DNA of 64,000 bases from an uncultured Campylobacterales bacterium (GTDB lineage Bacteria; Campylobacterota; Campylobacteria; Campylobacterales; CACVAW01). The stretch is from assembly GCA_902727925.1 (NCBI GenBank), contig CACVAW010000010.1:72726-136725 (forward strand), given 5' to 3'. The notes below the pieces were generated by a model. The model saw nothing but the letters and a program-made list of their open reading frames with translations, did no database searches and was not told the DNA's origin. This document shows positions 393-14,754 of the stretch, in pieces. Every line of letters starts with the position of its first letter. Position 1 is the first letter of the stretch. Both the position numbers and the translations under genes were made by a program.

Positions 393-432
393 GAAGCGGA
401 AAAGAGCAAATTTCTTTGCTCTTTTCCGCTTC
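393..432 (+). terminator. Stem-loop directly after the groEL stop (18-bp perfect stem, 4-nt loop)
   Basis: GAAGCGGAAAAGAGCAAA-tttc-TTTGCTCTTTTCCGCTTC read directly. No clean U-tract follows, so terminator function is inferred from position only. Confidence 0.5.
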
Positions 433-770: not shown

Positions 771-3707
771 ATGAGGAATAATACTATTAACTTCACACAG
801 TATCACTCAAAATATTATGCTGAAATATTGACACTTCAAAGTAGTGCGAACTCTATTGACAGACTGTCTCAGTCAATCTTTAATGCTCAGATTGACTTGA
901 ACCCTCATCAAGTTGAAGCAGCTCTATTCGCTTTTAAGTCACCTTTGTCGAGTGGTGTTATATTAGCTGATGAAGTTGGACTGGGGAAGACAATAGAAGC
1001 TGGTCTTGTTCTTACTCAGTATTGGAGTGAGAGAAAAAGAAAGATTATTATCATAGCACCATCGAGTCTTAGAAAACAGTGGTCCATGGAGCTTAGAGAG
1101 AAATTCTTTTTAGATAGCTTCATCTTAGATGGTAAAAGCTACAAAGAAGAAATAGTAAAAGGCAATAAAAATCCTTTTGAACAAAAAGATAAGATAGTTA
1201 TCACTTCATACCAATTTGCTTCAAGACATAATGAAGCGATGTTTTTAGCAGATTTTCAACTAAGTGTTATTGATGAAGCTCACAAACTTAGGAACTACCA
1301 CAAAGGCGAAAAAGCAAAAATGTCATTTGCTATTGCCAATGCTTTGAGAGATACAAAAAAAGTATTACTCACAGCTACACCTCTTCAAAACTCTTTACTT
1401 GAAATATTTGGTCTTGTAAGTGTTATAGATGATTTTGTATTTGGAGATAAGAAGTCGTTTCAAAAACAATTCTCTTCAACTGCTTTAACCACAAGCGATA
1501 TGAACGACCTTAAAGATAGACTAAAACCAATAGTAAAAAGAACACTTAGAAAAGATGTCATTGAGTATATCAACTACACTAAGAGAATACCAATAGTAGA
1601 AGAATTTACACCCTCATATGAAGAAGTTGCTCTCTATGACTTAATCTCAGACTTTATACTTAATGAAGATTTATTCTCTATACCTCGTGCGCAAAGAAGT
1701 CTTATCACTTTAGTTGTTAGAAAACTACTTGCTTCATCTACTACTGCCATTATGGGAACACTTTCAACACTTATAAACCGACTTAGAAAAATGGTCGTTG
1801 AAAAGAAAATAACTCAAGAAGACAAGGTGAATGGCGAAGCCAGAGAAGGTAGCCTGGGCTATTTAAACTTTATAATAGATGATGAAGATGAACTGATAGA
1901 AGATTATCTTGAAGAAGAAAATGATACTCAACCTAAAATATCATTTCAAGAAGTTAGACTACTTGAAGAAGATGTTGAAGCTATTGAAAGAGAGATAGAA
2001 GAACTTGAAACATTTATAGAGTTAGCAAAAACCATAGAGATAGACACTAAGGCTAAATCACTTATGAGTGCTTTAACAAAAGGTTTTGAAGCTCAAAATA
2101 CTCTTGGAGTTAAAGACCAAAAAGCAATCATCTTTACGGAGAGCAGAAGAACTCAACAGTTTTTATTTGACTATCTTAGTGCTAATGGATTTTCAGAAAA
2201 GATAGTATTATTCAACGGAACAAATACAGACCCTAAGTCAAAAGAGATTTATAAAGCTTGGTTAGAAAAATATAAAGATAGTGATAGAGCAACTGGTGCC
2301 AAAAGTGCTGATATGAAACAAGCCATAGTAGATTACTTTAGAGAAACAGCTTCTATTATGATAGCGACTGAAGCAGGGAGTGAGGGTATAAACTTACAGT
2401 TTTGTAATATGCTAATAAACTATGACCTACCTTGGAACCCACAACGAATAGAACAAAGAATAGGTAGAGTTCATAGATATGGACAAAAGTTTGATGTAGT
2501 AGTTATCAACTTCTTAAATAAAAAGAATGCCGCAGATAGACGAGTATATGAGTTACTATCAACAAAGTTCAATCTATTTGAGGGTGTATTTGGTGCTTCT
2601 GATGAAGTGCTTGGAAGTATTGAAAGTGGAGTTGATTTTCAAGATAGAATATTAAAAATATATGAAACTTGTAGAGATGATAAAGCCATAGAAGAAGCCT
2701 TTAATATTCTTCAAGATGAGATGAGAGAGCAAATAGAAGAAACAACACTAAAAACAAGACAATCACTCTTAGATAACTTTGATGAAGATGTTCATCTAAG
2801 ATTAAAAGATACAGAGTTAAGAAGCAATGAAACAGTAGATAGATTTTCAACTATTTTCTGGGATATAACAAAAGCAGAACTAAATGATGCAGCTACATTT
2901 TATGATGAAAAACAAGAGTTTGAATATAAAGGTAATCACTACCAACTTATATCAGCTTCTAAAATAAATCCAAATCAAAATGCTCACACTTATAGACTAA
3001 ATAGTTCTCTTGGCGAAGAAGTAATTGATAGAGCAAAACAAAGAGAACTGAGACTTACTAAACTTATCTTTGACCTTACTCATAACAAATACAAAATATC
3101 TGTTCTTGATGACTACAATGGTAAAAGAGGTTTTCTTAGAGCTACTAAAGTATCTATACAGTCTTATGATACTGAAGAGTATGTAATCATTACAGCACTC
3201 ACAAGTGATTACAAACTGCTAAATGAAGAAGTAGCTACAAAGCTATTATCTCTTGAAGCCAAAGAAGATAATGGAAGAAATACAAAAGTTAATATTGACA
3301 CCAATGATACTGAAAAGTTAGAGTATGAATACATCAAACAAAAAGATATAATTCTAATAGAAAATGAAGCTACAAATCAAACTCATTTCATTAGCCAAAG
3401 TACCAAGCTATATAAGTGGGCTGAGGATAAATTAGCAAGTATTGAGAAAGAGCTAAAAGATACTAGGGGTAAAATCAAAGAGCTAAATCGCCAAAGTATA
3501 GTTACTCAAAGTATTACTCAACATTCAGATATACAGCTACAAATAAAAGCTCAAGAGAAGAAAAGAAGAAAAATACAAAGAGAAATTTTTGATATTGAAG
3601 AAGAGATTGAAGAACAAAGAGATGAATTGATAGAAGAACTCAAACTTGCTAAAGAACAAACGATTACAACAAATGAATTATTTACAATAGAGTGGGAGAT
3701 TATATAA
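771..3707 (+). CDS. SNF2/RapA-family helicase-like ATPase (DISARM DrmD-like), 978 aa
   Basis: Motif I ADEVGLGKT (about nt 978-992), motif II DEAH (1272-1283) and motif III LLTATPLQNSL. C-lobe motifs ATEAGSEGINLQ and YDLPWNPQRIEQRIGRVHRYGQ. Coiled-coil E/K-rich C-terminus. The stop TAA abuts the ATG of the next gene. Confidence 0.9.
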   Translation: MRNNTINFTQYHSKYYAEILTLQSSANSIDRLSQSIFNAQIDLNPHQVEAALFAFKSPLSSGVILADEVGLGKTIEAGLVLTQYWSERKRKIIIIAPSSLRKQWSMELREKFFLDSFILDGKSYKEEIVKGNKNPFEQKDKIVITSYQFASRHNEAMFLADFQLSVIDEAHKLRNYHKGEKAKMSFAIANALRDTKKVLLTATPLQNSLLEIFGLVSVIDDFVFGDKKSFQKQFSSTALTTSDMNDLKDRLKPIVKRTLRKDVIEYINYTKRIPIVEEFTPSYEEVALYDLISDFILNEDLFSIPRAQRSLITLVVRKLLASSTTAIMGTLSTLINRLRKMVVEKKITQEDKVNGEAREGSLGYLNFIIDDEDELIEDYLEEENDTQPKISFQEVRLLEEDVEAIEREIEELETFIELAKTIEIDTKAKSLMSALTKGFEAQNTLGVKDQKAIIFTESRRTQQFLFDYLSANGFSEKIVLFNGTNTDPKSKEIYKAWLEKYKDSDRATGAKSADMKQAIVDYFRETASIMIATEAGSEGINLQFCNMLINYDLPWNPQRIEQRIGRVHRYGQKFDVVVINFLNKKNAADRRVYELLSTKFNLFEGVFGASDEVLGSIESGVDFQDRILKIYETCRDDKAIEEAFNILQDEMREQIEETTLKTRQSLLDNFDEDVHLRLKDTELRSNETVDRFSTIFWDITKAELNDAATFYDEKQEFEYKGNHYQLISASKINPNQNAHTYRLNSSLGEEVIDRAKQRELRLTKLIFDLTHNKYKISVLDDYNGKRGFLRATKVSIQSYDTEEYVIITALTSDYKLLNEEVATKLLSLEAKEDNGRNTKVNIDTNDTEKLEYEYIKQKDIILIENEATNQTHFISQSTKLYKWAEDKLASIEKELKDTRGKIKELNRQSIVTQSITQHSDIQLQIKAQEKKRRKIQREIFDIEEEIEEQRDELIEELKLAKEQTITTNELFTIEWEII
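1821..1860 (+). repeat. GC-rich 40-nt in-frame repeat, copy 1 (encodes DKVNGEAREGSLGY)
   Basis: 33 of 40 nt match 4221-4260, including a 23-nt perfect core aaggtgaatggcgaagccagaga (1824-1846). 23 of 40 nt are G/C, set in AT-rich coding sequence. Confidence 0.95.
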
Positions 3708-6686
3708 ATGGCACAAACAGAAAATCAAAAGAAATTATTAAAAATACTAAACGAGATATTCCAACTTGACCAAAGTGATTTAGACTTTGGTATCTACCGT
3801 ATTATGAATACTAAGAGCAAAGAGATAAATGAGTTCTTAGATAAAGACCTTTTATCAAGTGTATCAAAGGCTTTTAGTTCAAACGATAACAGTGCTATTC
3901 AAAAAGAATTAGATGAGCTTATTAAAACTTTAACAAATGCTGGTATGAATGCCGATGACAGTCCTAAAGTTCAAGAGTTAAAAGATAGTTTATCTTCAAG
4001 TTCAACTTCTTCAAATCTTGAAAATGAAGTCTTTTCTCACTTAGCGAACTTCTTTAAGAGATACTATAAAGATGGGGATTTTGTAAGCCTTAGAAGATAC
4101 AAAAAAGATACTTATGCCATACCTTACGAGGGTGAAGAAGTAAAACTCCACTGGGCGAATAGCGACCAATACTATATAAAAAGTGGAGAGTATTTTAGAG
4201 ATTATACTTTTACTGTAAATGATAAGGTGAATGGCGAAGCCAGAGAGAATGCCCTGGGGTGCAAAACCATACACTTGAAACTTAGCGATGCCGAAACAGA
4301 GAGTAATAACAATAAAGCCACAAGTGATAAAGAGAGAAGATTTGTAGTCTTAGAAGATAATCCTTGTGAAGTGATAGATGATGAGTTATACATCAACTTT
4401 GAGTATAAAGCCATAGGTAAAGAGAACCAAGACAAGTTAAATGAAAAAGCTATTGCTAAAGCACTTGAAAGTATTGAAGATTTAGATTTTATCAGTGCTT
4501 TGAATACTTTAGCAGCAACAGAAAAAAATAAGAAACGAACTATTTTTGAAAAGCACTTGAAGAGCTATACAAGTAGAAATAGTTTTGACTACTTTATCCA
4601 TAAAGATTTAGGTGGATTCTTAGGTAGAGAGTTGGACTTCTATATCAAAAATGAAATGTTGTTTTTAGATGATATTATGGATAGTCCTATTAAATATGAT
4701 GAAGTGATGGGTAAGATTAAAATCTTTAAGAATGTTTCTCAAAAAATAATAGCATTTCTTACACAACTTGAAGAGCTACAAAAGAAGTTATGGGAAAAGA
4801 AAAAGTTTATCATAGAAACAAACTACTGTATCACTCTTGATAAAATAGAAGAGAAACATTATAGTCATATATTTGAGAACAAAGAACAGTTAGAAGAGTG
4901 GAAAATACTTTTTGATGTAGATGTTCAAAGTGTTGATGACTTGAAAAAAGAAAAATATTTACTTTTAGATACTAAGTTTTTTGATACAAAATTCAAATAC
5001 AAGCTACTTAGTCAGTTTGATAACCTTGATGAAGATATAGATGGAGTGCTTATCAACAGTGAAAATTTTGGAGCATTAAACTTACTTCAAGATAGATATA
5101 AAGAACAAGTCAAAACTGTATATATTGACCCACCTTACAATACTGGAAGTGATGGCTTTTTATATGCTGATACATATCAACATAGTTCTTGGATGAGTTT
5201 TATGTATGATAGATTGGCTTTGGGTAGAGAGTTAATGAGTGATGATGGGGTTATTTTTAGTAGTATTGATGATAAAGAACAGCATAATTTAAAAGTTATT
5301 AATGACTTGGTTTTTGGTATCAATAATTTTAATACTAATATTGGATGGCAAAAAAGATATACAAGGAGTAATAATACAATAGATTTTACAACCGTATTAG
5401 AATTTATATTAGTTTTTTCTAAAACAGATGATTTTATAGTGAATTTATTACCGAGAACTAAAGAAGCAGATGATAGATATACAAATCCTGATAAGGATAA
5501 AAGAGGTTCATGGAAAGGTGCTTCTTTTTTAAATCCTGCAACACCAAAAGAAAGACCTAATTTATGTTATCCAATTATTAATCCAAATACTAATATTGAA
5601 ACTAATCCAACAACTAATGCATGGAGACGCTCAAAAGAAGAATTTGCAAAATTATTAATAGAGAATAAATTATATTGGGGTATTGATGGAAAACAAGCAA
5701 TACCATCAATAAAAATGTTTTTGTCAGAAGCAAGAGGCTTGACACCAACTAATTTTTGGGAACATGGATATGCAGGAAATACCGATGAAGGAACTTTAGA
5801 TTTATTTAAACTATTTAATAATAAATTGTTTAATAATCCTAAGCCAATAAAACTTATTAAGCGAGTTTTTGAACATGGTTCAAATAAAAGTTCAACAGTC
5901 TTAGACTATTTCGCAGGTTCAGGAACAACAGGGAATGCCGTTATTAACTTAAACCGTGAAGATAATGGAACAAGAAAATATATCTTAGTTGAAATGGGAG
6001 AATATTTTGATAGTGTTACAAAGCCAAGAATACAAAAAGTAATTTACACAGACAGTTGGAAAGATGGCAAACCTCAAACTAAGAATGGTATATCTCAAAT
6101 CTTCAAATACTTCAAACTTGAAAGCTATGAAGACACTCTAAATAACCTTGAATTCAAAAGAACAAAAGAGCAAGAAGAAACGTTAGATATGTATGATAAA
6201 GCTAAAGATGATTATATACTCAACTACTCTTTGCGATTTGAGAGCCAAGCTTCACTGCTAAATATAGATACTTTCAAAACTCCATTTGATTATAAGCTCA
6301 AAATTGCTACTTCAAGTGTTGGCGAAACAAAAGATACTCCTGTTGATTTAGTAGAAACATTTAACTATCTTTTAGGTCTTGTTGTTAAGCGAATAGAACT
6401 ACTCTACCCCAAGGGTACTTCTTCGCAAGCTCAGGGCGAAAGCTACCTTGTAATAGAAGGGCAAAACCTTAAAAAAGAGAAAATCCTTATCATTTGGAGA
6501 GATGGTCAAAGTAGTGAAGAACTAAATGAGTTCTTCAAAAAAATGGATTGGTCTGTAAAGACAAGCGAGTTTGATACTATCTATGTAAATGGCGATAACA
6601 ACTTAGATAATCTTAGAAAAGATGAAGACCACTATAAAGTTAAGTTGATAGAGCAAGAGTTTAAAAAATTGATGTTTGGAGAATAA
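3708..6686 (+). CDS. Site-specific DNA methyltransferase, N6/N4 beta-class (type III Mod-like order) with a ~470-aa N-terminal extension, 992 aa
   Basis: Motif IV VYIDPPYNTG (DPPY at 5127-5138) precedes motif I DYFAGSGTTG (about 5910-5930), which is the beta-class order. The N-terminal ~470 aa have no motif I recognise. Confidence 0.9.
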   Translation: MAQTENQKKLLKILNEIFQLDQSDLDFGIYRIMNTKSKEINEFLDKDLLSSVSKAFSSNDNSAIQKELDELIKTLTNAGMNADDSPKVQELKDSLSSSSTSSNLENEVFSHLANFFKRYYKDGDFVSLRRYKKDTYAIPYEGEEVKLHWANSDQYYIKSGEYFRDYTFTVNDKVNGEARENALGCKTIHLKLSDAETESNNNKATSDKERRFVVLEDNPCEVIDDELYINFEYKAIGKENQDKLNEKAIAKALESIEDLDFISALNTLAATEKNKKRTIFEKHLKSYTSRNSFDYFIHKDLGGFLGRELDFYIKNEMLFLDDIMDSPIKYDEVMGKIKIFKNVSQKIIAFLTQLEELQKKLWEKKKFIIETNYCITLDKIEEKHYSHIFENKEQLEEWKILFDVDVQSVDDLKKEKYLLLDTKFFDTKFKYKLLSQFDNLDEDIDGVLINSENFGALNLLQDRYKEQVKTVYIDPPYNTGSDGFLYADTYQHSSWMSFMYDRLALGRELMSDDGVIFSSIDDKEQHNLKVINDLVFGINNFNTNIGWQKRYTRSNNTIDFTTVLEFILVFSKTDDFIVNLLPRTKEADDRYTNPDKDKRGSWKGASFLNPATPKERPNLCYPIINPNTNIETNPTTNAWRRSKEEFAKLLIENKLYWGIDGKQAIPSIKMFLSEARGLTPTNFWEHGYAGNTDEGTLDLFKLFNNKLFNNPKPIKLIKRVFEHGSNKSSTVLDYFAGSGTTGNAVINLNREDNGTRKYILVEMGEYFDSVTKPRIQKVIYTDSWKDGKPQTKNGISQIFKYFKLESYEDTLNNLEFKRTKEQEETLDMYDKAKDDYILNYSLRFESQASLLNIDTFKTPFDYKLKIATSSVGETKDTPVDLVETFNYLLGLVVKRIELLYPKGTSSQAQGESYLVIEGQNLKKEKILIIWRDGQSSEELNEFFKKMDWSVKTSEFDTIYVNGDNNLDNLRKDEDHYKVKLIEQEFKKLMFGE
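4221..4260 (+). repeat. GC-rich 40-nt in-frame repeat, copy 2 (encodes DKVNGEARENALGC)
   Basis: Same 23-nt perfect core at 4224-4246. It sits exactly 2400 bp downstream of copy 1, in the same codon phase. Confidence 0.95.
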
Positions 6687-6687
6687 A

Positions 6688-9273
6688 ATGAATGATAAAT
6701 TTATAAATGGCTCACAATGGGTCAGGTTTGATTGCCATTTACATACAGATAGTGATAATGAGTTTAAATATAATGAAGATAAAAATTATTATATTAGCTC
6801 TTATGTAAATAAATTAAAAGAAAAAAATATTTCTGTTGGAGTTATAACAAATCATAATAAATTTAATTTAGAAGAATTTAAAGCTATTAAAAAAACTGCA
6901 AACAAAAAAGATATATTTGTTATGCCAGGTGTGGAACTATCAGTAAATGATGGAGCAAATGGGATTCATACTCTTATAGTCTTTGATGAAAAAGAATGGT
7001 TAGAAGATGGCAATAATTATATTCAGCAGTTTATTGATGAATCTTTTGTAACTCAAAATCCAAATAATTATCAAAATGAAAATGGAAGAAGTAATGATAA
7101 TCTAATAACTACAATAAAAAAATTAAATGATTATCATAGAGGCTATTTTATTATATTAGCTCATGTTGAAGATAAAAGTGGATTTTTCAATGCATTAGAA
7201 GGTGGAAGAGTTACGGAATTTGGTAAAAACAAGCTATTTAGAGATAGTGTTATAGGTTTTCAAAAAGTTAGAACACGAGATAATATAATAAAGTGGAATA
7301 AATGGCTAGATAATAATTTACCTGCTTTTGTTGAAGGTTCAGATCCTAAAAAAATAGAAGAGATTGGTAAAGGCAAAAAATCATATATCAAGATTGGCGA
7401 TTATAATTTTGAAGCTGTAAAGTTTGCATTACAAGATAATAAGTATAGAGTAAGTAAAGAAACTCAAAATAGAGAAAACTCATTTATTAAATCTATTGCA
7501 TTTGATGGTGGTAAACTAAATGGACAGATAATAGAACTCTCTTCATCTATGAATAATCTTGTAGGGGTTAGGGGTAGTGGAAAATCATCTATAATTGAAG
7601 CTGTTAGATATGGATTAGATTTACCATTTGGAAGTAATAGTGTAGATATTGATTATAAAAATAATTTAGTAAAAGAACTGCTTGGAAGTGCAGGAAAAAT
7701 ATCTATTAAAGCTATAGATAAGGATGATAGAGAGTATCTTATAGAGCGAGTTTATGGACATAGCTTAGAAATAAAAAAAGATGGCGAACTTAAAAATGTC
7801 GGTATTTTGTCAATTTTAAATAAACCTCTATACTTTGGACAAAAAGATTTATCAAGTTATAAAAGTGGTTTTGAGGGAGACCTAATCAATAAATTGATTG
7901 GAGATAAAACAAAAGATATTCAAGTTAGTATTGATGTTAAAAAGCAAGAAGTGAAGTCATTACTTGAAAATATAAAAAAGTATGATAATTTAGATGATAA
8001 AAAAGAAGAGATAACGAGAAAAATCGCAGAGCTCAACTTGAAAATTGATGAGTTTAAAAAACATAAAATAGAAGAGAAATTACAAAAACAGATAGAGTTT
8101 AATAAAGATAAGACTTCTTTGCAAAGTATTAAAAAAAGGCTAAAAGAGTTTAGAAGTGATGTTGATGAATTTTTGTCACAATATGAAAAAGAGAATTTCT
8201 TTGAAAAAATGAAAAATTATGAGTCAAAAGAAAATCAAGATACATTTGATGAAATTTACAAAATTGTTGATGAGACTGAAAAAAGTTTTATAGATATTAC
8301 AGCTGGACTTCATAAATTAATTAATAGTTTTAAAAATATTAATGGTATTGAAAATGATTTTAATACTAAAGCTAAAGAATTAGAGGTTGAGTTTCTTGAA
8401 ATCCAAAGAGAGATAAGCATTCCTAATTTAAGAGCAGATGACTTTATGACTTATACAAAATCTTTACATACACAAAAGATGATGTTGGCTGAGTTAGAAA
8501 AGTCAGGGGCAATAAAAAAAGATATGAATAGCAAACTTGTAAAGCTATTGTCAGAACTTAATGATTTGTATAGAGAAGAGTTCAAAATTATTGAGGTAGA
8601 AATAAACAAAATCAATAGCACTCAAAAGTTTATAAAATTAAAGTCTGAATTTAAAGGAGACAAATCATCTTTTGAACAGTATTTAAAAAATATTTTTGGT
8701 GGAAGTGGTTTAGGTAAGGCTGATTATGAAAAATTATGTACCTATGTAGATTGTAGTGAAGTTTACAATGATTTTGAAAATATTTCATTTGGTGGTAATA
8801 AATTATTAGTATTTAGAGAAAGATTTATGAATTCACTATCTTCGTTATTAACTTTTAAAGTTCCGAATAAAATTGAAATTTTTTATAATGGAAAAGAGTT
8901 AACTAAACATTCACTTGGTCAAAGGTCATCTGCTTTAATTATATTTATATTAACACAGCAAGATAACGACATAATAGTAATCGACCAACCAGAAGATGAT
9001 TTAGATAATCAAACTATTTACAATGAAGTTATAAAAGAGTTAGTTAAACTAAAAAATAAGACTCAGTTTATATTTGCAACACACAATGCAAACATACCAG
9101 TTTTAGGAGATTGTGAACAGATAGTTGTGTGTGATTATGATGAAAATAAAATCAATACAGAGCTTGGAAGTATAGATAACCACGACATTCAAGAGAAGAT
9201 AATAAATATTATGGAGGGCGGAGAAGAAGCCTTTGATAAAAGAAGGGAGATATATAATTTATGGAAACATTAG
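6688..9273 (+). CDS. PHP-domain phosphoesterase fused to a coiled-coil SMC/Rad50-like ABC ATPase
   Basis: N-terminal PHP-like His/Asp/Glu motifs: CHLHTD (about 6733-6750), ITNHN, PGVELS, GIHTLIVF, LAHVED. Walker A GVRGSGKSS (about 7564-7590), then a ~300-aa K/E-rich coiled-coil-like insert, then SLGQRS, Walker B IVIDQPEDDLD (about 8977-9006) and FATHNANI. I prefer ATG 6688 (GGAG 6 nt upstream, 1 nt after the methylase stop) over the track's TTG 6676. Confidence 0.8.
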   Translation: MNDKFINGSQWVRFDCHLHTDSDNEFKYNEDKNYYISSYVNKLKEKNISVGVITNHNKFNLEEFKAIKKTANKKDIFVMPGVELSVNDGANGIHTLIVFDEKEWLEDGNNYIQQFIDESFVTQNPNNYQNENGRSNDNLITTIKKLNDYHRGYFIILAHVEDKSGFFNALEGGRVTEFGKNKLFRDSVIGFQKVRTRDNIIKWNKWLDNNLPAFVEGSDPKKIEEIGKGKKSYIKIGDYNFEAVKFALQDNKYRVSKETQNRENSFIKSIAFDGGKLNGQIIELSSSMNNLVGVRGSGKSSIIEAVRYGLDLPFGSNSVDIDYKNNLVKELLGSAGKISIKAIDKDDREYLIERVYGHSLEIKKDGELKNVGILSILNKPLYFGQKDLSSYKSGFEGDLINKLIGDKTKDIQVSIDVKKQEVKSLLENIKKYDNLDDKKEEITRKIAELNLKIDEFKKHKIEEKLQKQIEFNKDKTSLQSIKKRLKEFRSDVDEFLSQYEKENFFEKMKNYESKENQDTFDEIYKIVDETEKSFIDITAGLHKLINSFKNINGIENDFNTKAKELEVEFLEIQREISIPNLRADDFMTYTKSLHTQKMMLAELEKSGAIKKDMNSKLVKLLSELNDLYREEFKIIEVEINKINSTQKFIKLKSEFKGDKSSFEQYLKNIFGGSGLGKADYEKLCTYVDCSEVYNDFENISFGGNKLLVFRERFMNSLSSLLTFKVPNKIEIFYNGKELTKHSLGQRSSALIIFILTQQDNDIIVIDQPEDDLDNQTIYNEVIKELVKLKNKTQFIFATHNANIPVLGDCEQIVVCDYDENKINTELGSIDNHDIQEKIINIMEGGEEAFDKRREIYNLWKH

Positions 9274-10418
9274 AATTAATTGAAAGAATTTCAAATGGGG
9301 AAGATAGTTATACTCAGTTTAAAGAAAACATAACTAATAATGATAAATTAGCGGAGGAATTAGTTGCTTTTTCAAATTCAAAGGGTGGTGTATTGATTAT
9401 TGGAGTTACTGATAATAACGATATAGCTGGTCTTAGTGATGATGATATTAGACGATTAAATCAACTGGTAGGAAATGTAATTAATTCTAATATAACACCT
9501 CCTATATATCCTATTACAGAAATCAAAATAATTGAACAAAAAAAATTGTTAATAGTTACTGTAGAAGATGGAAGTAATAAACCATACTCTACTAATAAAG
9601 GTATATATCTAACTAAAGCAGGTAGTGATAAAAGAAAAGTTTCACCAGAAGAATTAAAAAGATTATTTGCAGAGTCAAAAAGATTATATGCTGATGAAGA
9701 AATAGTTGTAGGTAGCGATATTAGTGATTTAAATAGTGAACAATTTTATAATTTTTTAGAAAAAGATGATAGTAAAATTTATGAAGAAGTAAAACAAGAC
9801 ACTCTAAGTCTTTCAAGTGTTTTAGAAAATCGTGAGTTATTAAGAAATGACCAATTAACATTAGCAGGAAATTTAATATTTGGTATGAACCCACAAAAGT
9901 ATAATACTTCATTTTATGTAGATTGTGTATATTTTGATGGAGATGAAATATCAGTAGATAAATTTATCTCTAAAAAGACTCTCAAAGGAAGTTTTGAAAA
10001 ATTATTTAATGATAGTTTAGCTTTTGTTGTTAGTAATTTGACTAAAAAACAAGTTGATGATGAGTTTAATACTAAGGGAGAGCTTGAAGTAGATGAACGA
10101 GTATTAACAGAGTTAATCGTAAATGCTTTAGTTCATAGGGATTACTATATTAACTCTTCTATTAAAATTTTTATGTTTCATAATCGTATAGAAATAGTTA
10201 GTCCAGGGAAGTTAACAAATTCTTTAACGGTTGATAAAATTAAGAGTGGTATATCAATTCATAGAAACCCAATCTTAAACTCAATATGTAAAACGGTGTT
10301 GCCATATAGTGGTTATGGGAGTGGTATTAAACGGGCAATTGGTATAAATCCAAGTATTGAATTTATAAACGATATTGATAAAGAAGAGTTTAAGTGTATT
10401 ATTCCAAGAGAAGTGTAG
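9261..10418 (+). CDS. Schlafen/AlbA_2-type putative DNA-binding protein with a C-terminal HATPase_c_4-like region (often annotated RecG-like regulator)
   Basis: N-terminal GEDSYTQFKE...VAFSNSKGGVLIIGV matches the AlbA_2 pattern (E-x-x-x-[EQ]-F-K ... N-x-x-G-G-x-[IL]-x-[IL]-G-[IV]). C-terminal LIVNALVHRDYYINSSIKIFMFHNRIEIVSPGKL is the typical HRDY...PG block. Its ATG overlaps the upstream gene by 13 nt. Confidence 0.7.
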   Translation: METLELIERISNGEDSYTQFKENITNNDKLAEELVAFSNSKGGVLIIGVTDNNDIAGLSDDDIRRLNQLVGNVINSNITPPIYPITEIKIIEQKKLLIVTVEDGSNKPYSTNKGIYLTKAGSDKRKVSPEELKRLFAESKRLYADEEIVVGSDISDLNSEQFYNFLEKDDSKIYEEVKQDTLSLSSVLENRELLRNDQLTLAGNLIFGMNPQKYNTSFYVDCVYFDGDEISVDKFISKKTLKGSFEKLFNDSLAFVVSNLTKKQVDDEFNTKGELEVDERVLTELIVNALVHRDYYINSSIKIFMFHNRIEIVSPGKLTNSLTVDKIKSGISIHRNPILNSICKTVLPYSGYGSGIKRAIGINPSIEFINDIDKEEFKCIIPREV

Positions 10419-10421
10419 ATA

Positions 10422-13400
10422 ATGAAATTTAATGAAAAATTAGTATTAAATTCATACCTATTATCACTTTTAGGTGTAGAAAATTTTGAAGAGTTAGCTA
10501 AAGACTTAAAAGCTTCACGACTTGAAGAGCTTGATGAAAATGATAACTCACTTTTCTATCACGAGTTAAAAGATAAACTTGTAAGCACTCACAAAATCAT
10601 TAGCGATGATAAGCTTCAAGAGTATGATGAAAATATTGTAAGACACACCAAAACTATGGGTCGTGGTATAAAGTGGAAATATTTTCAATACCTATCACTT
10701 CTGTTTATTGAGATTTATTTAGATAAATATTTTGATGATAAAGAACAACTTCTTGAAGACCTAAATATATATCTAAGAGAGTTTAATACAGACATAGATA
10801 AAAAAGAGAAGCTTACAGAATACAATGAAACAGAGTTAAATAAATTAGCTCTATACAATGCTACTGGGTCTGGTAAAACTTTATTACTTCAAATGAACAT
10901 ATTACAGTTTAATCATTATGCTAAAGGTAAAATCAAAATTAATAAAACAGTTTTGATTACTCCTAATGAGGGATTGTCAAATCAACATTTAGAAGAGTTC
11001 AAAGCTTCAAACATAGAAGCAGAAATATTTGATAAAAACAGACAGAACACACTTGTGAATAGTGCTATTGAAATTATTGAAACAACAAAGCTTGGAGATG
11101 AAACTAAAGATAAAACGATTGCTGTTGATAGTTTTGAAGATAATAATTTAGTTTTTATAGATGAAGGACATAATGGAGTAAAAGGCGAAGTAAGAAAAGA
11201 GAACAGAGATAAGCTAAGTGAAAATGGTTTTGCTTTTGAATACTCAGCAACTTTTGCTCAAGCAATAAATAGTGCTGCTGGAACAAAGAAAAAAGAGCTT
11301 GAAAATGAATATACAAAAGCTATTATATTTGATTATAGCTATAAGTATTTTTATAATGATGGCTATGGTAAAGACTATTCAATACTTAACCTAAGTGAAG
11401 ATAGTGATGACATAAAACAGACTTACTTAACAGCTGCACTTCTTAGCTTTTATCAACAGATGAAAATCTATGAGAGTTCAAAGACAACACTAAAGCCTTA
11501 TCTTATTGAAAAGCCTTTGATGGTATTTGTTGGTTCAAGTGTAAATGCCGTTAGAACAGAGAGCAAAAAGCAAGTGTCTGATGTAGTTGATGTATTGTTA
11601 TTTATAGATGAGTTTATCAAGAGTAAGAGTGAAAGTATTGCTAATATAGATAAAATAATGAGCTTTGATAGTGGTCTTCGTAATTCTAAAGGAGTAGATA
11701 TATTTGAGAACAAGTTTAGTTTTTTAGAAAATACAAAACTAAATGCTGCTCAACTGTTTGATGATATGTTAAATCTTATCTTTAATGCAACAAACGGAAC
11801 TCTTCATATAGAGAACCTAAAAGGTGTCGATGGAGAGATAGCCCTTCGTATTGGAGAGAATGAATACTTTGGTGTTATCAATGTAGGCGATAGTCAAAGC
11901 CTTGTAAAGTTATGTGAAGCAAATGGTATGAGTATAGCAAGTAGAGATTTTTCAAGCTCACTGTTTAAGACTATAAATGATACTACTTCAAATCTAAATA
12001 TACTTGTAGGTTCAAAGAAGTTTAGTGAAGGTTGGAGTTCTTGGAGAGTATCCACTATGGGGCTTATGAATATAGGTAAAAAAGAGGGTTCTCAGATTAT
12101 TCAACTATTTGGTCGTGGTGTTAGATTAAAGGGTTATGACTTTTGCTTGAAAAGAAGTAGAGCTATTAGAGGTAAAGAGCTGATGCGAAAATATCAAGCA
12201 GTTGAAACATTAAATATATTTGGACTAAAAGCTGATTATATGAAAGCTTTTAAGGACTACCTAAAAGATGAGGGTGTTCCTACTGATGAGAGAGTTGAAT
12301 TTGTTTTACCTTTGATTTATGATAAAAGCTACAAAACTAAAAAGTTAAAAGTGTTAGACCTTCAAGTTGGTAAAAATTACAAAAAAGAAGTTAAACTTGA
12401 TTTAGAATATAGTGATATTAGAGGTATTAGTAAGAAAGTAGTTCTTAGCTTGTATAAACAAGTTGATATATTAGAGAGTGAAAGCAGAACTGGAAATAAG
12501 TATGATTTAAACAGCGAGATACTCGATAAAGTTCATCTTAGCTTTATGAGTATTGATAATATATTTTTCGCACTACAACAATTCAAAAATGAAAAAAGTT
12601 GGAGTAATCTGAATATCTCAAAAGATGATGTAAATGATTTAATCAATAGAAATGATTGGTATAAACTATTTATTCCAAGCGATGATATGAAAGTAAGTAG
12701 CTTCAAAAATATTTCTAACTTTGAACAGATAATGATTACACTACTTAAAAAGTATATGAAGTCATTTTATGAGTATAAAAAGAGTGAGTGGGAGAGCCAA
12801 TTTTTAGAATATAGAGAATTGGACGAGACAAAGGATACTTCAAACTTAATAGACAACTATACCATTACAGTAGAAGACAAAGAAATAGAGCTTATAGAGA
12901 GGTTAGAAGCTCTTAGAACTATGCTTGAGAGTGGTGTTATAGATGATGCTGAACTTCACAGACTATCTAAGAAAGATTTTAAGGCTTTTAGATTTGATAA
13001 ACACCTATACAATCCACTTGTATTCAAAGACAGAGGTGAAACAGCTCTACAAATAAAACCAATAGAGCTAAACGATGGCGAAAAAGATTTTGTGGAAGAT
13101 TTAGATAGCTACTTGAAACGAAATGGCTCTACTTATGAAGATACAGAGATATATCTACTAAGAAACCAAAGTAAAACAGGACTTGGATTTTTCACAGAGG
13201 GTAATTTCTACCCCGACTTCATTATGTGGATAAAAAAAGATGAAAAACAATATATTAGTTTTATAGACCCTAAAGGGATAAGAAACTTAAACCCAAGTAA
13301 TGACCCAAAAATTAATTTATCAAAAAAAATCAAAGAGATTGAAAATAATCTTGGAGATACGAATATAATATTAAACTCTTTTATAGTTTCTAATACATCA

Positions 13401-13526
13401 TATAATGATATTTTAGACTTACATAATAATATTTCATTAGAAGAATTAGAAGATAAAAATGTGTTATTCCAGCAAGATGATAAGAATGGTTATATTGGTA
13501 AAATGTTTAGTAAGGTATTGAGTTAA
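10422..13526 (+). CDS. Type III Res-like DExH helicase with a C-terminal PD-(D/E)xK nuclease motif, 1034 aa
   Basis: Walker A NATGSGKT (about 10860-10880), motif II FIDEGH (11160-11171), motif III YSATF, FSEGWS, and motif VI QLFGRGVR. C-terminus reads YPDF...(17 aa)...FIDPKG (13211-13274), a PD...DxK pattern. Starts 3 nt after the upstream stop. Confidence 0.8.
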   Translation: MKFNEKLVLNSYLLSLLGVENFEELAKDLKASRLEELDENDNSLFYHELKDKLVSTHKIISDDKLQEYDENIVRHTKTMGRGIKWKYFQYLSLLFIEIYLDKYFDDKEQLLEDLNIYLREFNTDIDKKEKLTEYNETELNKLALYNATGSGKTLLLQMNILQFNHYAKGKIKINKTVLITPNEGLSNQHLEEFKASNIEAEIFDKNRQNTLVNSAIEIIETTKLGDETKDKTIAVDSFEDNNLVFIDEGHNGVKGEVRKENRDKLSENGFAFEYSATFAQAINSAAGTKKKELENEYTKAIIFDYSYKYFYNDGYGKDYSILNLSEDSDDIKQTYLTAALLSFYQQMKIYESSKTTLKPYLIEKPLMVFVGSSVNAVRTESKKQVSDVVDVLLFIDEFIKSKSESIANIDKIMSFDSGLRNSKGVDIFENKFSFLENTKLNAAQLFDDMLNLIFNATNGTLHIENLKGVDGEIALRIGENEYFGVINVGDSQSLVKLCEANGMSIASRDFSSSLFKTINDTTSNLNILVGSKKFSEGWSSWRVSTMGLMNIGKKEGSQIIQLFGRGVRLKGYDFCLKRSRAIRGKELMRKYQAVETLNIFGLKADYMKAFKDYLKDEGVPTDERVEFVLPLIYDKSYKTKKLKVLDLQVGKNYKKEVKLDLEYSDIRGISKKVVLSLYKQVDILESESRTGNKYDLNSEILDKVHLSFMSIDNIFFALQQFKNEKSWSNLNISKDDVNDLINRNDWYKLFIPSDDMKVSSFKNISNFEQIMITLLKKYMKSFYEYKKSEWESQFLEYRELDETKDTSNLIDNYTITVEDKEIELIERLEALRTMLESGVIDDAELHRLSKKDFKAFRFDKHLYNPLVFKDRGETALQIKPIELNDGEKDFVEDLDSYLKRNGSTYEDTEIYLLRNQSKTGLGFFTEGNFYPDFIMWIKKDEKQYISFIDPKGIRNLNPSNDPKINLSKKIKEIENNLGDTNIILNSFIVSNTSYNDILDLHNNISLEELEDKNVLFQQDDKNGYIGKMFSKVLS

Positions 13527-13730: not shown

Positions 13731-14201
13731 ATGAAGAAATTAAACTTTTCGGTACTCTTGGCTGGTGTTGCCTTATTTATGGCTTTTGGGATGACTTCTC
13801 TTAGTGCTTGTGCTACTAAAACAGAAACTAAATGTGGATCTGAGAAAATCACTAAATGTGATTCTGGGAAATGTGGTAAAGCAGAGAGAAAAACTAAAAA
13901 ATGTGACAAGTCTAAAAAATGTGATTACAAAAAGAAATGTGATAAGTCTAAAAAGTGTGACTACAAAAAGAAATGTGACAAGTCTAAAAAGTGTGACTAC
14001 AAAAAGAAATGTGATAAGTCTAAAAAGTGTGACTACAAAAAGAAATGTGACAAATCTAAAAAGTGTGACTACAAAAAGAAGTGTGACAAGTCTAAAAAAT
14101 GTGACTACAAAAAGAAATGTGACAAATCTAAAAAGTGTGACTACAAAAAGAAATGTGACAAATCTAAAAAAAGCGATAAATCTAGATTAAATATGTTTTA
14201 A
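13731..14201 (+). CDS. Cys/Lys-rich repeat lipoprotein (KCDKSKKCDYKK x7), HvfA-like low-complexity precursor-type protein
   Basis: Signal peptide MKKLNFSVLLAGVALFMAFGMTSLSAC carries the lipobox L-S-A-C. It is followed by KCGSEKITKCDSGKCG, seven exact 12-aa repeats, and the tail SRLNMF. RBS-like aaagga lies upstream. Confidence 0.75.
   Translation: MKKLNFSVLLAGVALFMAFGMTSLSACATKTETKCGSEKITKCDSGKCGKAERKTKKCDKSKKCDYKKKCDKSKKCDYKKKCDKSKKCDYKKKCDKSKKCDYKKKCDKSKKCDYKKKCDKSKKCDYKKKCDKSKKCDYKKKCDKSKKSDKSRLNMF
13899..14150 (+). repeat. 36-bp in-frame tandem repeat, 7 full copies (a partial 8th extends to ~14171)
   Basis: Copies start at 13899, 13935, 13971, 14007, 14043, 14079 and 14115. They differ only at gac/gat and aaa/aag wobble positions. 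Confidence 0.95.
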
Positions 14202-14388
14202 TCTTAGTAGAGGTGGGTTCTATACTCATCTCTATACCAATATATTCTATATACTCCTTTCTTAAACACAATATTAACAAAACTTCAGAATAAACATTTA
14301 ACCATCCTAATAATACAAGGTCTAGGTATGTATACTTAATTACTATTTTTTAGATAGAATATTGATGTATAAAATTAAAAGGACAGAA

Positions 14389-14748
14389 ATGAAAAAATTA
14401 AATTTTTCGTTATTATTCGTTGGAGTTGCTTTATTTATAGGTCTTGGTATAACCACTCTTAGTGCTTGTGGCAGTAAAAGTGGTGATGCTAAATGTGGTT
14501 CTGATAAAGTAACTAAATGTGATAGTGGAAAATGTGGAGCTTCTAAAAAAGCTACAAAATGTGGAAGTAAATGTGGTGATGCAAAATGTGCTTCAGACAA
14601 ATCTTCAAAATGTGGTGATGCTAAATGTGGCGCTAAAAAAGCTACTAAGTGTGGAACTGCTAAATGTGGTACAGAAAGCAAAGCAGCTACAAAATGTGGT
14701 GCTGGTAAATGTGGAAGTGACAAAGAATCTAAATTAGATATGTTTTAA
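14389..14748 (+). CDS. Cys-rich KCG-repeat lipoprotein, paralogue of 13731-14201 (HvfA-like)
   Basis: MKKLNFSLLFVGVALFIGLGITTLSAC (lipobox) is followed by 12 K-C-[GDA] motifs and the tail SKLDMF. I prefer ATG 14389 (aaaagga upstream) over the track start 14362, because it aligns with the paralogue's N-terminus. Confidence 0.75.
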   Translation: MKKLNFSLLFVGVALFIGLGITTLSACGSKSGDAKCGSDKVTKCDSGKCGASKKATKCGSKCGDAKCASDKSSKCGDAKCGAKKATKCGTAKCGTESKAATKCGAGKCGSDKESKLDMF

Positions 14749-14754
14749 TTTTTT

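Follow-up and report, generated by a model that had tools for sequence, protein, structure and literature searches.

The 64,000-nucleotide stretch analysed here (the window; positions 72,726 to 136,725 of the forward strand of contig CACVAW010000010.1, assembly GCA_902727925.1, from an uncultured Campylobacterales bacterium) raises a simple question: why do two adjacent genes with unrelated products, a SNF2-family helicase and a type III Mod-like DNA methyltransferase, share a short GC-rich sequence that is read in frame in both? On balance, we lean towards the view that the two copies are independent insertions of a widespread, very small, non-autonomous and structure-defined element, which is 39 nt long here and 42-54 nt long elsewhere. 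That they belong to a mobile insertion-element family is, in our judgment, very probable, while the route of movement that we propose, through single-stranded DNA and an enzyme acting in trans, is put forward more tentatively. The likeness between two unrelated proteins would therefore be owed to a shared parasite, and not to ancestry, regulation or a designed switch.

The two window copies and their sites

The host genes, the two copies and a third, unoccupied site that is filled in relatives are as follows.

771..3707, forward strand: host gene 1, SNF2-family helicase (DrmD-like), 978 aa; PF00176, PF00271; PADLOC DrmD PDLC02619, E = 3.9e-205
3708..6686, forward strand: host gene 2, type III Mod-like N6/N4 DNA methyltransferase, 992 aa; PF01555; PADLOC MTase_III PDLC03646, E = 2.5e-225
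1823..1861, forward strand: element copy 1, 39 nt, C AAGGTGAAT GGCGAAGCC AGAGAAGG TAGCCTGGGCTA; site A, after gaa ga^; translated in SNF2 as (D)KVNGEAREGSLG(Y)
4223..4261, forward strand: element copy 2, 39 nt, T AAGGTGAAT GGCGAAGCC AGAGAGAA TGCCCTGGGGTG; site M, after aat ga^; translated in the methylase as (D)KVNGEARENALG(C)
3207..3215, forward strand: unoccupied site B in SNF2, gat tac aaa, between Y814 and K815; a second copy stands here in loci L001-L004

As the initial annotation had reported, gacaaggtgaatggcgaagccagagaaggtagcctgggct at 1821-1860 and gataaggtgaatggcgaagccagagagaatgccctggggt at 4221-4260 are identical at 33 of 40 positions, contain the 23-mer AAGGTGAATGGCGAAGCCAGAGA as an exact match (1824-1846 and 4224-4246) and are both in frame. 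The repeat it described is thus present, although covariation across the family (below) places the unit at 39 nt and its limits at 1823-1861 and 4223-4261. With up to three mismatches allowed, the 64-kb window holds no further match beyond these two, and dinucleotide-preserving shuffles gave a match in 0 of 100. A covariance-model scan of the window with filters off likewise returned the two copies only, at 70.0 and 63.8 bits, the next best hit reaching 7 bits. Each 39-nt unit has a G+C content of 56%, against about 31% for the window. Copy 1 is read as residues 352-364 of SNF2 (KVNGEAREGSLGY) and copy 2 as residues 173-185 of the methylase (KVNGEARENALGC). Two independent Logan assemblies (L129 and L130) contain the operon with both copies, with 0 and 1 mismatch over 13.4 and 10.4 kb, and so the repeat pair is not an assembly artefact. 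The shared codon phase is real but carries no independent weight, since both genes lie in one frame (3708-771 = 2937 = 3 x 979), and the spacing of exactly 2400 bp is a coincidence, being merely a multiple of 3.

Alignment of orthologues, which the initial annotation had proposed as a check, reveals both of its 14-residue segments as clean 13-codon insertions. KVNGEAREGSLGY faces a clean 13-residue gap in most of 120 SNF2 homologues, including the closest (P0003, 90% identical), with a subset carrying the segment; among the best 120 methylase homologues, KVNGEARENALGC is found in the query and in the 100%-identical P0121 only. At the nucleotide level, site A is empty in L128 (caa gaa gat tta), site M is empty in L128 (aat gat aaa) and in L001 (aat gac aaa), and empty copies of site B follow the pattern gat taY aaa, while site B is filled in L004 (gat tac [AAG..GGC TAC] aaa) and in L001 (gat gac [AAG..GGC TAT] aaa). 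Occupation of site A, B or M adds exactly 39 nt to the sequence, with no duplicated bases beyond an ambiguity of 1-3 nt. In the SNF2 tree, site A is occupied in four separate lineages, each with an empty sister. Judged from these alignments, both window segments are insertions relative to close orthologues; the peptides are clearly not conserved features of distant orthologues, and the sequence occurs well beyond this locus.

The sites themselves look permissive. In the AlphaFold2 model of the SNF2 protein (mean predicted local distance difference test score, pLDDT, 62.8), residues 350-394 are coil with pLDDT below 50, and site A is accordingly modelled as lying in a disordered acidic linker, a 45-residue coil, with site B predicted to lie in a turn. 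Site M falls on an indel-prone loop of the methylase family in the 120-homologue alignment. Copies in surface loops would be tolerated and read as a hydrophilic, Gly-rich loop because the unit amounts to 13 codons and is stop-free in its main frame, and the disordered acidic linker of SNF2 and the variable turn of the methylase are tolerant sites of this kind.

These observations bear on two explanations that would confine the matter to this locus. One is local copying, by gene conversion or template switching, of a native segment from one gene into the other. The copies are only 2.4 kb apart and have 23 identical nucleotides in common, as such an event would predict; however, neither segment is native, both being insertions when set against homologues, the copies differ at 7 positions including compensated pairs, and the family exists far outside the locus, all of which makes local copying hardly credible. 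The other, raised in the initial annotation, is that the repeats serve as a recombination substrate, RecA- or slippage-mediated deletion of 2400 bp fusing SNF2 residues 1-350 to the methylase as an ON/OFF or remodelling switch. Since the exact 23-nt repeats are direct and share a frame, the fusion product would indeed be in frame. Yet the 23-nt identity is the family consensus and is not specific to this system, copy M is confined to this genome among the best 120 homologues while relatives hold copies at other sites, and both independent assemblies are intact. Moreover, the predicted fusion junction CAAGAAGAC-core-GAGAATGCCCTGGGGTGC gave 0 matches in the metagenome collection, which is a weak negative, and 23 nt is close to the shortest length that homologous recombination can use. 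We regard such a switch as extremely unlikely.

A covarying two-hairpin unit

The family to which the copies belong is defined by a fold. The unit runs from a variable base N(-1) through AAGGTGAA to hairpin P1, which has a variable stem and a GNA-type loop, then through GAGAnn and a base N26 to hairpin P2 (T n n C CTGG G n n A). In copy 1 the parts are placed as follows.

1832..1842, forward strand: hairpin P1 of copy 1, TGGC GAA GCCA; pairs 9:19, 10:18, 11:17 and 12:16
1849..1861, forward strand: G1849, which pairs with C1823, then hairpin P2 of copy 1, TAGC CTGG GCTA; pairs 27:38, 28:37, 29:36 and 30:35

In an alignment of 116 distinct copies, 99.0% of hairpin cells are paired, as opposed to 78.8% in column shuffles, and changes on both sides of a pair were found in 173 cells where 41 were expected. 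The covariation score is 0.530, against 0.146 in shuffles (0/500) and at most 0.066 in slid controls, and the covarying positions are ones that were either N in the search pattern or outside it. Pair 10:18 occurs as UA (52), GC (48), CG (9) and AU (4), and pair 11:17 as GC (83), CG (17) and AU (6). The four P2 pairs 27:38, 28:37, 29:36 and 30:35 are 99% paired, and three of them covary.

A further pair sets the limits of the element. The base directly 5' of AAGG (position -1) covaries with position 26 at a mutual information of 0.95, with CG in 84 copies, GC in 25, TA in 15, TG in 2 and 9 exceptions among 135; in the 116 distinct copies the counts are CG 71, GC 19, UA 15 and UG 2, and the pair forms in 115 of the 120 stretches of an independent metagenome set. 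Because -1:26 covaries, the unit extends from -1 to 38, that is 1823-1861 and 4223-4261 in the window, and because this pair stacks on 27:38, the first and last nucleotides of the element would abut on a single helix. G.T pairs occur often and A.C pairs hardly at all, which argues that one particular strand folds. Copies 1 and 2 differ at 7 positions, including compensated pairs in P2 (AG/CT versus GC/G.T) and -1:26 (C:G versus T:A); copy 2 has T:A at -1:26 and T.G at 27:38. The compensated differences in P2 and at -1:26 indicate that the two copies represent different sub-lineages of the family.

P1 is the more variable hairpin. In the set retrieved without constraint on this part, its stem is paired throughout over 4-7 bp or more, with a C-G closing pair and loops of GAA, GCA, AAA, GTA, ATA or GNNA. 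These loops follow the rule known for d(GCGNAGC)/d(GCGNNAGC) DNA mini-hairpins (PMC13037366). Comparison of the core by eye with the hammerhead, hairpin-ribozyme, k-turn, loop-E and T-loop consensus motifs gave no fit, on inspection alone.

Spread, rival readings and the host operon

The range of the element is wide. A degenerate pattern built to match all seven variants found at least 119 genome stretches in a species-representative genome collection. The matches listed include candidate phyla radiation (CPR) bacteria (Saccharibacteria, Paceibacteria, Gracilibacteria, Peribacteria and other CPR lineages), Campylobacterota, Zetaproteobacteria, several gammaproteobacterial orders and Methylotenera, together with single metagenome-assembled genomes (MAGs) of Lentisphaeraceae, Caldisericales and one Woesearchaeota; among them, the flanks of most copies are unique. 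A looser pattern, with P1 left free, found at least 120 stretches in metagenomes, including human-gut contigs and contigs of 55-60% G+C. Unit lengths in this metagenome set are 39, 42, 43, 45, 48 and 54 nt, and 73% of them are multiples of 3. One to about six copies were seen per MAG. Cultured carriers include Zhongshania marina DSW25-10, with at least 5 copies in 8 kb of L018, Sulfurimonas sp. CS5 and S. indica NW8N. Viral contigs of IMG/VR gave 2 matches only, and annotated phages, plasmids and the full set of complete E. coli genomes yielded no BLAST match, barring two chance 23-nt matches in Brucella. A string search of the literature, whose coverage is incomplete, with the core as DNA, the core as RNA and the peptide returned nothing relevant, and the 39-base two-hairpin element appears to be previously undescribed. 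A peptide census of the protein database proved uninformative for single copies, as single 13-residue matches fall below significance and multi-copy proteins alone were returned: ribosomal proteins L3 and S16 (in their C-terminal tails), an rSAM-associated transferase (three tandem copies) and a FliP-family protein (at the N-terminus), entries P0245, P0247, P0241 and P0248, each contain several element-encoded KVNxExRExxLG units.

The target is short. Position -2 is A in 75-93% of copies. Position -3 is G in 44-77%, with the metagenome set biased to G or C, and flanking positions beyond -3 are at background level outside open reading frames (ORFs). On their 5' side, copies of the 39-nt class share the consensus gaaGA, followed by the C of the element. 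Within ORFs, GA^N codons are split, as are the Asp codons (GA^Y) that hold the window copies. Roughly half of all copies fall within long ORFs, where 64 are in the sense and 5 in the antisense orientation; frame F0 exceeds F2 by 54:10, and the frame that contains TGA is nearly absent. Downstream of co-oriented genes, the ratio of sense to antisense is 37:20, and intergenic copies occur in both orientations, including as inverted pairs. The proteins that carry the element include DnaE, GyrA, HSP90 (HtpG), AlaRS, four class-I synthetases, HypD/HypF, iPGM and Mur ligases, among others. Whether copies of lengths other than 3n interrupt genuine ORFs proved too noisy to judge in GC-rich contigs, with one clear case: at about 1400-1439 of L211, a 40-nt copy splits the ORF of a DDE (rve-like) transposase between ...ELWQA and DTMYGP..., and its removal restores the frame.

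This distribution bears on the remaining suggestions of the initial annotation. Its proposal that the repeat is a small GC-rich element inserting in frame, comparable to the Rickettsia palindromic elements, is borne out by the insertions relative to close orthologues and by the many unrelated sites in many phyla. A second proposal was a shared binding site for an RNA or protein regulator. If the regulator (a protein or small RNA) served this defence operon alone, two copies in one operon and none elsewhere in 64 kb would be expected. However, one or both copies are missing from most orthologous operons, and unrelated phyla carry the element in DnaE, GyrA, HtpG and tRNA synthetases as well as in intergenic DNA; a site peculiar to this system is very improbable.

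The arrangements of the copies are informative in their own right. Tandem 39-nt arrays, iterated 9-nt and 30-nt modules, 5'-truncated b-only units within arrays and nested self-insertions were all found, one of the last after AGA^ in L219. The element multiplies within genomes, as seen from the stem subtypes common to the copies inside one MAG and from the tandem and nested arrays. Some copies lie in the loops of GC-rich palindromes. In a Saccharibacteria MAG (L060, about 370-555), a small ORF with its own start codon and terminator consists almost wholly of tandem copies (MKEVNTKGREAGLGHCKAREDALGYKVNAGGREGTLGYKVNAEGREGALGY...), and its first unit, AAGGAGGTGAAT, forms a perfect Shine-Dalgarno sequence. 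In a Chromatiales MAG, the 39-mer is nested at the centre of a transposable element of the miniature inverted-repeat class (MITE) of about 190 bp with terminal inverted repeats (GGAACCTCTGATCAATTC.../...GAATTAATCAGAGGCTCC), which is present on at least five contigs (L065, 7330-7528; L072; L097; L110; L124). Two inverted copies 420 bp apart in L144 (4543-5045), each preceded by GTAGGG(G/C)GCGA, surround a perfect DnaA box (TTATCCACA) and an inverted partner of it. In two Patescibacteria MAGs, arrays of full and partial copies start exactly at the 3' end of a tRNA gene (tRNA-Thr in L053, 2443-2572; tRNA-Leu in L077, 4497-4640), and this adjacency did not extend to a general link. Copies occupy the same codon position in DnaE of two CPR classes (L008/L078) and in HtpG of several Campylobacterota (L014/L042/L083). 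Between these same-position copies, three or four base pairs are changed, all with full compensation, which may reflect either an ancient insertion kept under selection or repeated insertion; SNF2 copies that share a site also show compensated differences.

How might such an element move? Insertion takes place after an A, mostly as GA^N, with neither terminal inverted repeats nor a target-site duplication. We suggest that an enzyme which acts in trans and recognises structure, of HUH-type or similar, may excise and religate the element in single-stranded form. The flanking DNA would leave the folded single strand at one point, with both ends side by side, and A38 could be joined to N(-1) in an intermediate, either a circle or a tandem junction. 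Precise loss or re-insertion would then produce the patchy distribution. The mini-hairpin loops of P1, which do not follow RNA tetraloop rules, the insertions into hairpin loops and the intergenic copies in both orientations suggest DNA as the active form. We consider this route possible, a little short of an even chance.

Several observations weigh against this account. Among 95 flanking ORFs searched with Pfam, no recurrent transposase, reverse transcriptase or HUH gene stands beside the copies, and a crude HUH/Y regular-expression search over about 1.7 Mb of loci found no IS200/RAYT-like ORF. Neither split-end nor cargo-carrying versions were found (apparent 'left-end only' matches turned out to be variants with a C27-G38 pair), and no circle, excision product or empty allele from the same population was seen. 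The 64:5 sense bias exceeds what replication-strand bias alone would give and fits a role at the RNA level equally well. Compensated pairs at orthologous sites suggest selection on the structure in place, unlike a dead selfish insertion. Both hairpins are short, and minimum free energy folding of the window copies as RNA is no better than that of shuffles on either strand (z -0.66 to +0.45); thermodynamics alone is uninformative here, and the structure emerged from covariation only. Finally, the search patterns themselves dictated part of the core motif, and its apparent invariance is in part ascertainment.

The most substantial alternative is that the element is a functional RNA within the sense transcript, for example a ribozyme, a protein- or ribosome-binding module or a determinant of mRNA stability or pausing, which is spread by reverse transcription or kept by the host. 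The extreme sense bias in ORFs and the 37:20 excess downstream of co-oriented genes agree with it, as do the 5'-truncated b-only units in arrays and the conserved purine-rich joints (AGGUGAA and GAGA) between variable helices, an architecture typical of functional RNAs. AGGUGA is, furthermore, complementary to the anti-Shine-Dalgarno tail. The bias, this Shine-Dalgarno-like motif and the compensated changes at orthologous sites, the last of which are otherwise unexplained, suggest RNA. Conversely, Rfam 15 yields no match to the element, either at E <= 10 in the window or at E <= 1 in seven loci with multiple copies, and copies in ORFs sit in stop-free frames with lengths that are mostly 3n, which implies that they are read through and not removed. 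The loops obey the DNA mini-hairpin rule, with GNNA loops that are not GNRA, intergenic copies occur in both orientations, inverted pairs among them, and neighbouring ORFs include no reverse transcriptase. Taken together, we find a functional RNA rather unlikely. Less probable still is a nucleic acid, single-stranded DNA or RNA, that is self-sufficient or nearly so, in which the purine-rich loop performs or directs its own cutting and joining at A-N junctions via a 39-nt circle, or a fold that is kept for the sake of host transcripts. A self-acting or host-selected fold would explain the near-invariant core across phyla, the lack of a linked enzyme and the compensated changes at orthologous sites, although we judge it improbable.

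In the covariance-model scan of the window, no element copy lies in the remainder of the operon, which comprises the following.

6676..13526, forward strand: rest of the operon, PHP + ATPase (Ppl-like), Schlafen/AlbA_2 and a type III Res-like helicase-nuclease

A type III restriction-modification pair is present (Mod, PF01555/PDLC03646; Res, PF04851/PDLC03654). DISARM was considered and set aside as a classification for the operon: of its parts, which include DrmA, DrmB (DUF1998) and DrmC beside DrmD and the methylase, the DrmD-like SNF2 protein alone matches, the others being Ppl-like, Schlafen/AlbA_2 and type III Res. The nearest database proteins come from uncultured Campylobacterota and Sulfurimonas. 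In relatives, the SNF2-Mod-Res backbone holds other passenger genes, such as a PemK toxin between SNF2 and Mod in L001 (12865-13275) or, in L005 (3082-3894 and 6999-7994), a DUF3800 protein between SNF2 and Mod and a Fic/HTH protein in place of PHP-ATPase and Schlafen. Upstream of the operon, 3' of the ORF at 150-392, an inverted repeat whose 18-bp arms match perfectly around a loop of 4 nt (GAAGCGGAAAAGAGCAAA / TTTGCTCTTTTCCGCTTC; window 393-432) is probably a terminator. Two adjacent ORFs at 13731-14201 and 14378-14753 have signal-peptide-like starts and are made up of tandem repeats of 18 and 39 nt; their products consist of Cys/Lys-rich units (KKCDKSKKCDYK..., KCGxxKCG...), and 12 registered copies lie at 13860-14206.

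If the insertion account is true, many phyla, including bacteria of the human gut, share an overlooked class of mobile DNA of about 40 nt, which resides mostly in coding sequence and lengthens essential proteins by loops of 13 residues. Protein evolution would thereby have a further, new supply of indels and linker variants, and for annotation it would be a trap, creating spurious similarity between unrelated proteins as in the SNF2/methylase pair. The element is also of structural interest, as a compact, structure-defined insertion unit whose ends are held close to each other by a single covarying base pair, and the mobilising agent, once found, could reveal a new strand-transfer activity. 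For the SNF2-methylase operon, no programmed switch is needed.

Comparison with known systems

The closest precedent in bacteria is the Rickettsia palindromic element (RPE), which Ogata and colleagues (cited in PMC10969869) reportedly described in 2000 as 'selfish DNA in protein-coding genes'. RPEs are likewise short, non-autonomous, structured, inserted in frame in unrelated genes and translated, and their mobilisation is also unexplained. They differ in being about 100-150 bp long, in consisting of one long palindrome and in not being known outside Rickettsia, whereas the element described here measures 39-54 nt, has two small hairpins with conserved joints and occurs in many phyla.

Organellar genomes offer a second set of parallels, among them the mitochondrial 'byp' elements that Lang and colleagues are said to have described in 2014. 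Mitochondrial GC clusters, the double-hairpin elements of Allomyces, sponge RHEs and byps are, like our element, GC-rich hairpins of about 40 nt that are found in AT-rich genomes at intergenic and coding positions. Their units also merge or shuffle and are exchanged by recombination, and the choice between a DNA- and an RNA-mediated mechanism is unsettled for them too. In contrast to our copies they are organellar, and the sequences are unrelated. Ribosomes skip byps, but the copies here are stop-free and apparently translated. The organellar relatives by likeness include the yeast mitochondrial GC42 cluster (PMC4478555) and the RHEs of sponges (PMC2800124); GC42 has a putative AG target-site duplication, and none was seen here.

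In mechanism, the proposed route resembles the 'peel-and-paste' transposition of IS200/IS605 elements and the mobilisation of REP/REPIN sequences by RAYT/TnpA-REP (PMC10055086, PMC8266576, PMC3116915, PMC3733652). Hairpins that appear strand-specific, the lack of terminal inverted repeats and target duplication, a short flanking motif and the possibility of seamless loss are common to them, and in GC-rich genomes copies in REP-like palindromes and inverted doublets add to the likeness to REP/REPIN. Unlike in IS200/IS605, the target is 1-2 nt (GA^) and not a tetra- or pentanucleotide, the two hairpins are dissimilar, and P2 ends at the last base of the element; no Y1 transposase was found among the 95 neighbouring ORFs or by the regular-expression search of the loci. 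Unlike REP/REPIN, the 39-nt class lacks a GTAG/CGTC tag, some half of the copies sit within genes and the copy number per MAG is low; GTAG stands upstream in one GC-rich subfamily only (L144, L168, L209, L213). Assignment to the MITEs was rejected, as the element has neither terminal inverted repeats nor a target-site duplication, and one subfamily is merely nested in the 190-bp MITE.

Two further likenesses concern parts of the element. P1, mostly ..GC GAA GC.., GC GCA GC or C GNNA G, corresponds exactly to the d(GCGNAGC)/d(GCGNNAGC) mini-hairpins (PMC13037366), which are a structural motif and not mobile, while P1 makes up just a part of a conserved whole. PARCELs (PMC2996958) are similar in being a dyad-symmetric repeat coding sequence with a patchy occurrence over distant microbes and a probable horizontal spread; they are, however, 75-nt repeats in tandem in surface proteins that are defined at the protein level, and have neither the two-hairpin core nor single-copy insertions in housekeeping genes. 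As the defining features tested for each named family are absent from it, the element falls outside all of them, and by analogy it is best described as behaving like the RPEs and the mitochondrial GC clusters and double-hairpin elements.

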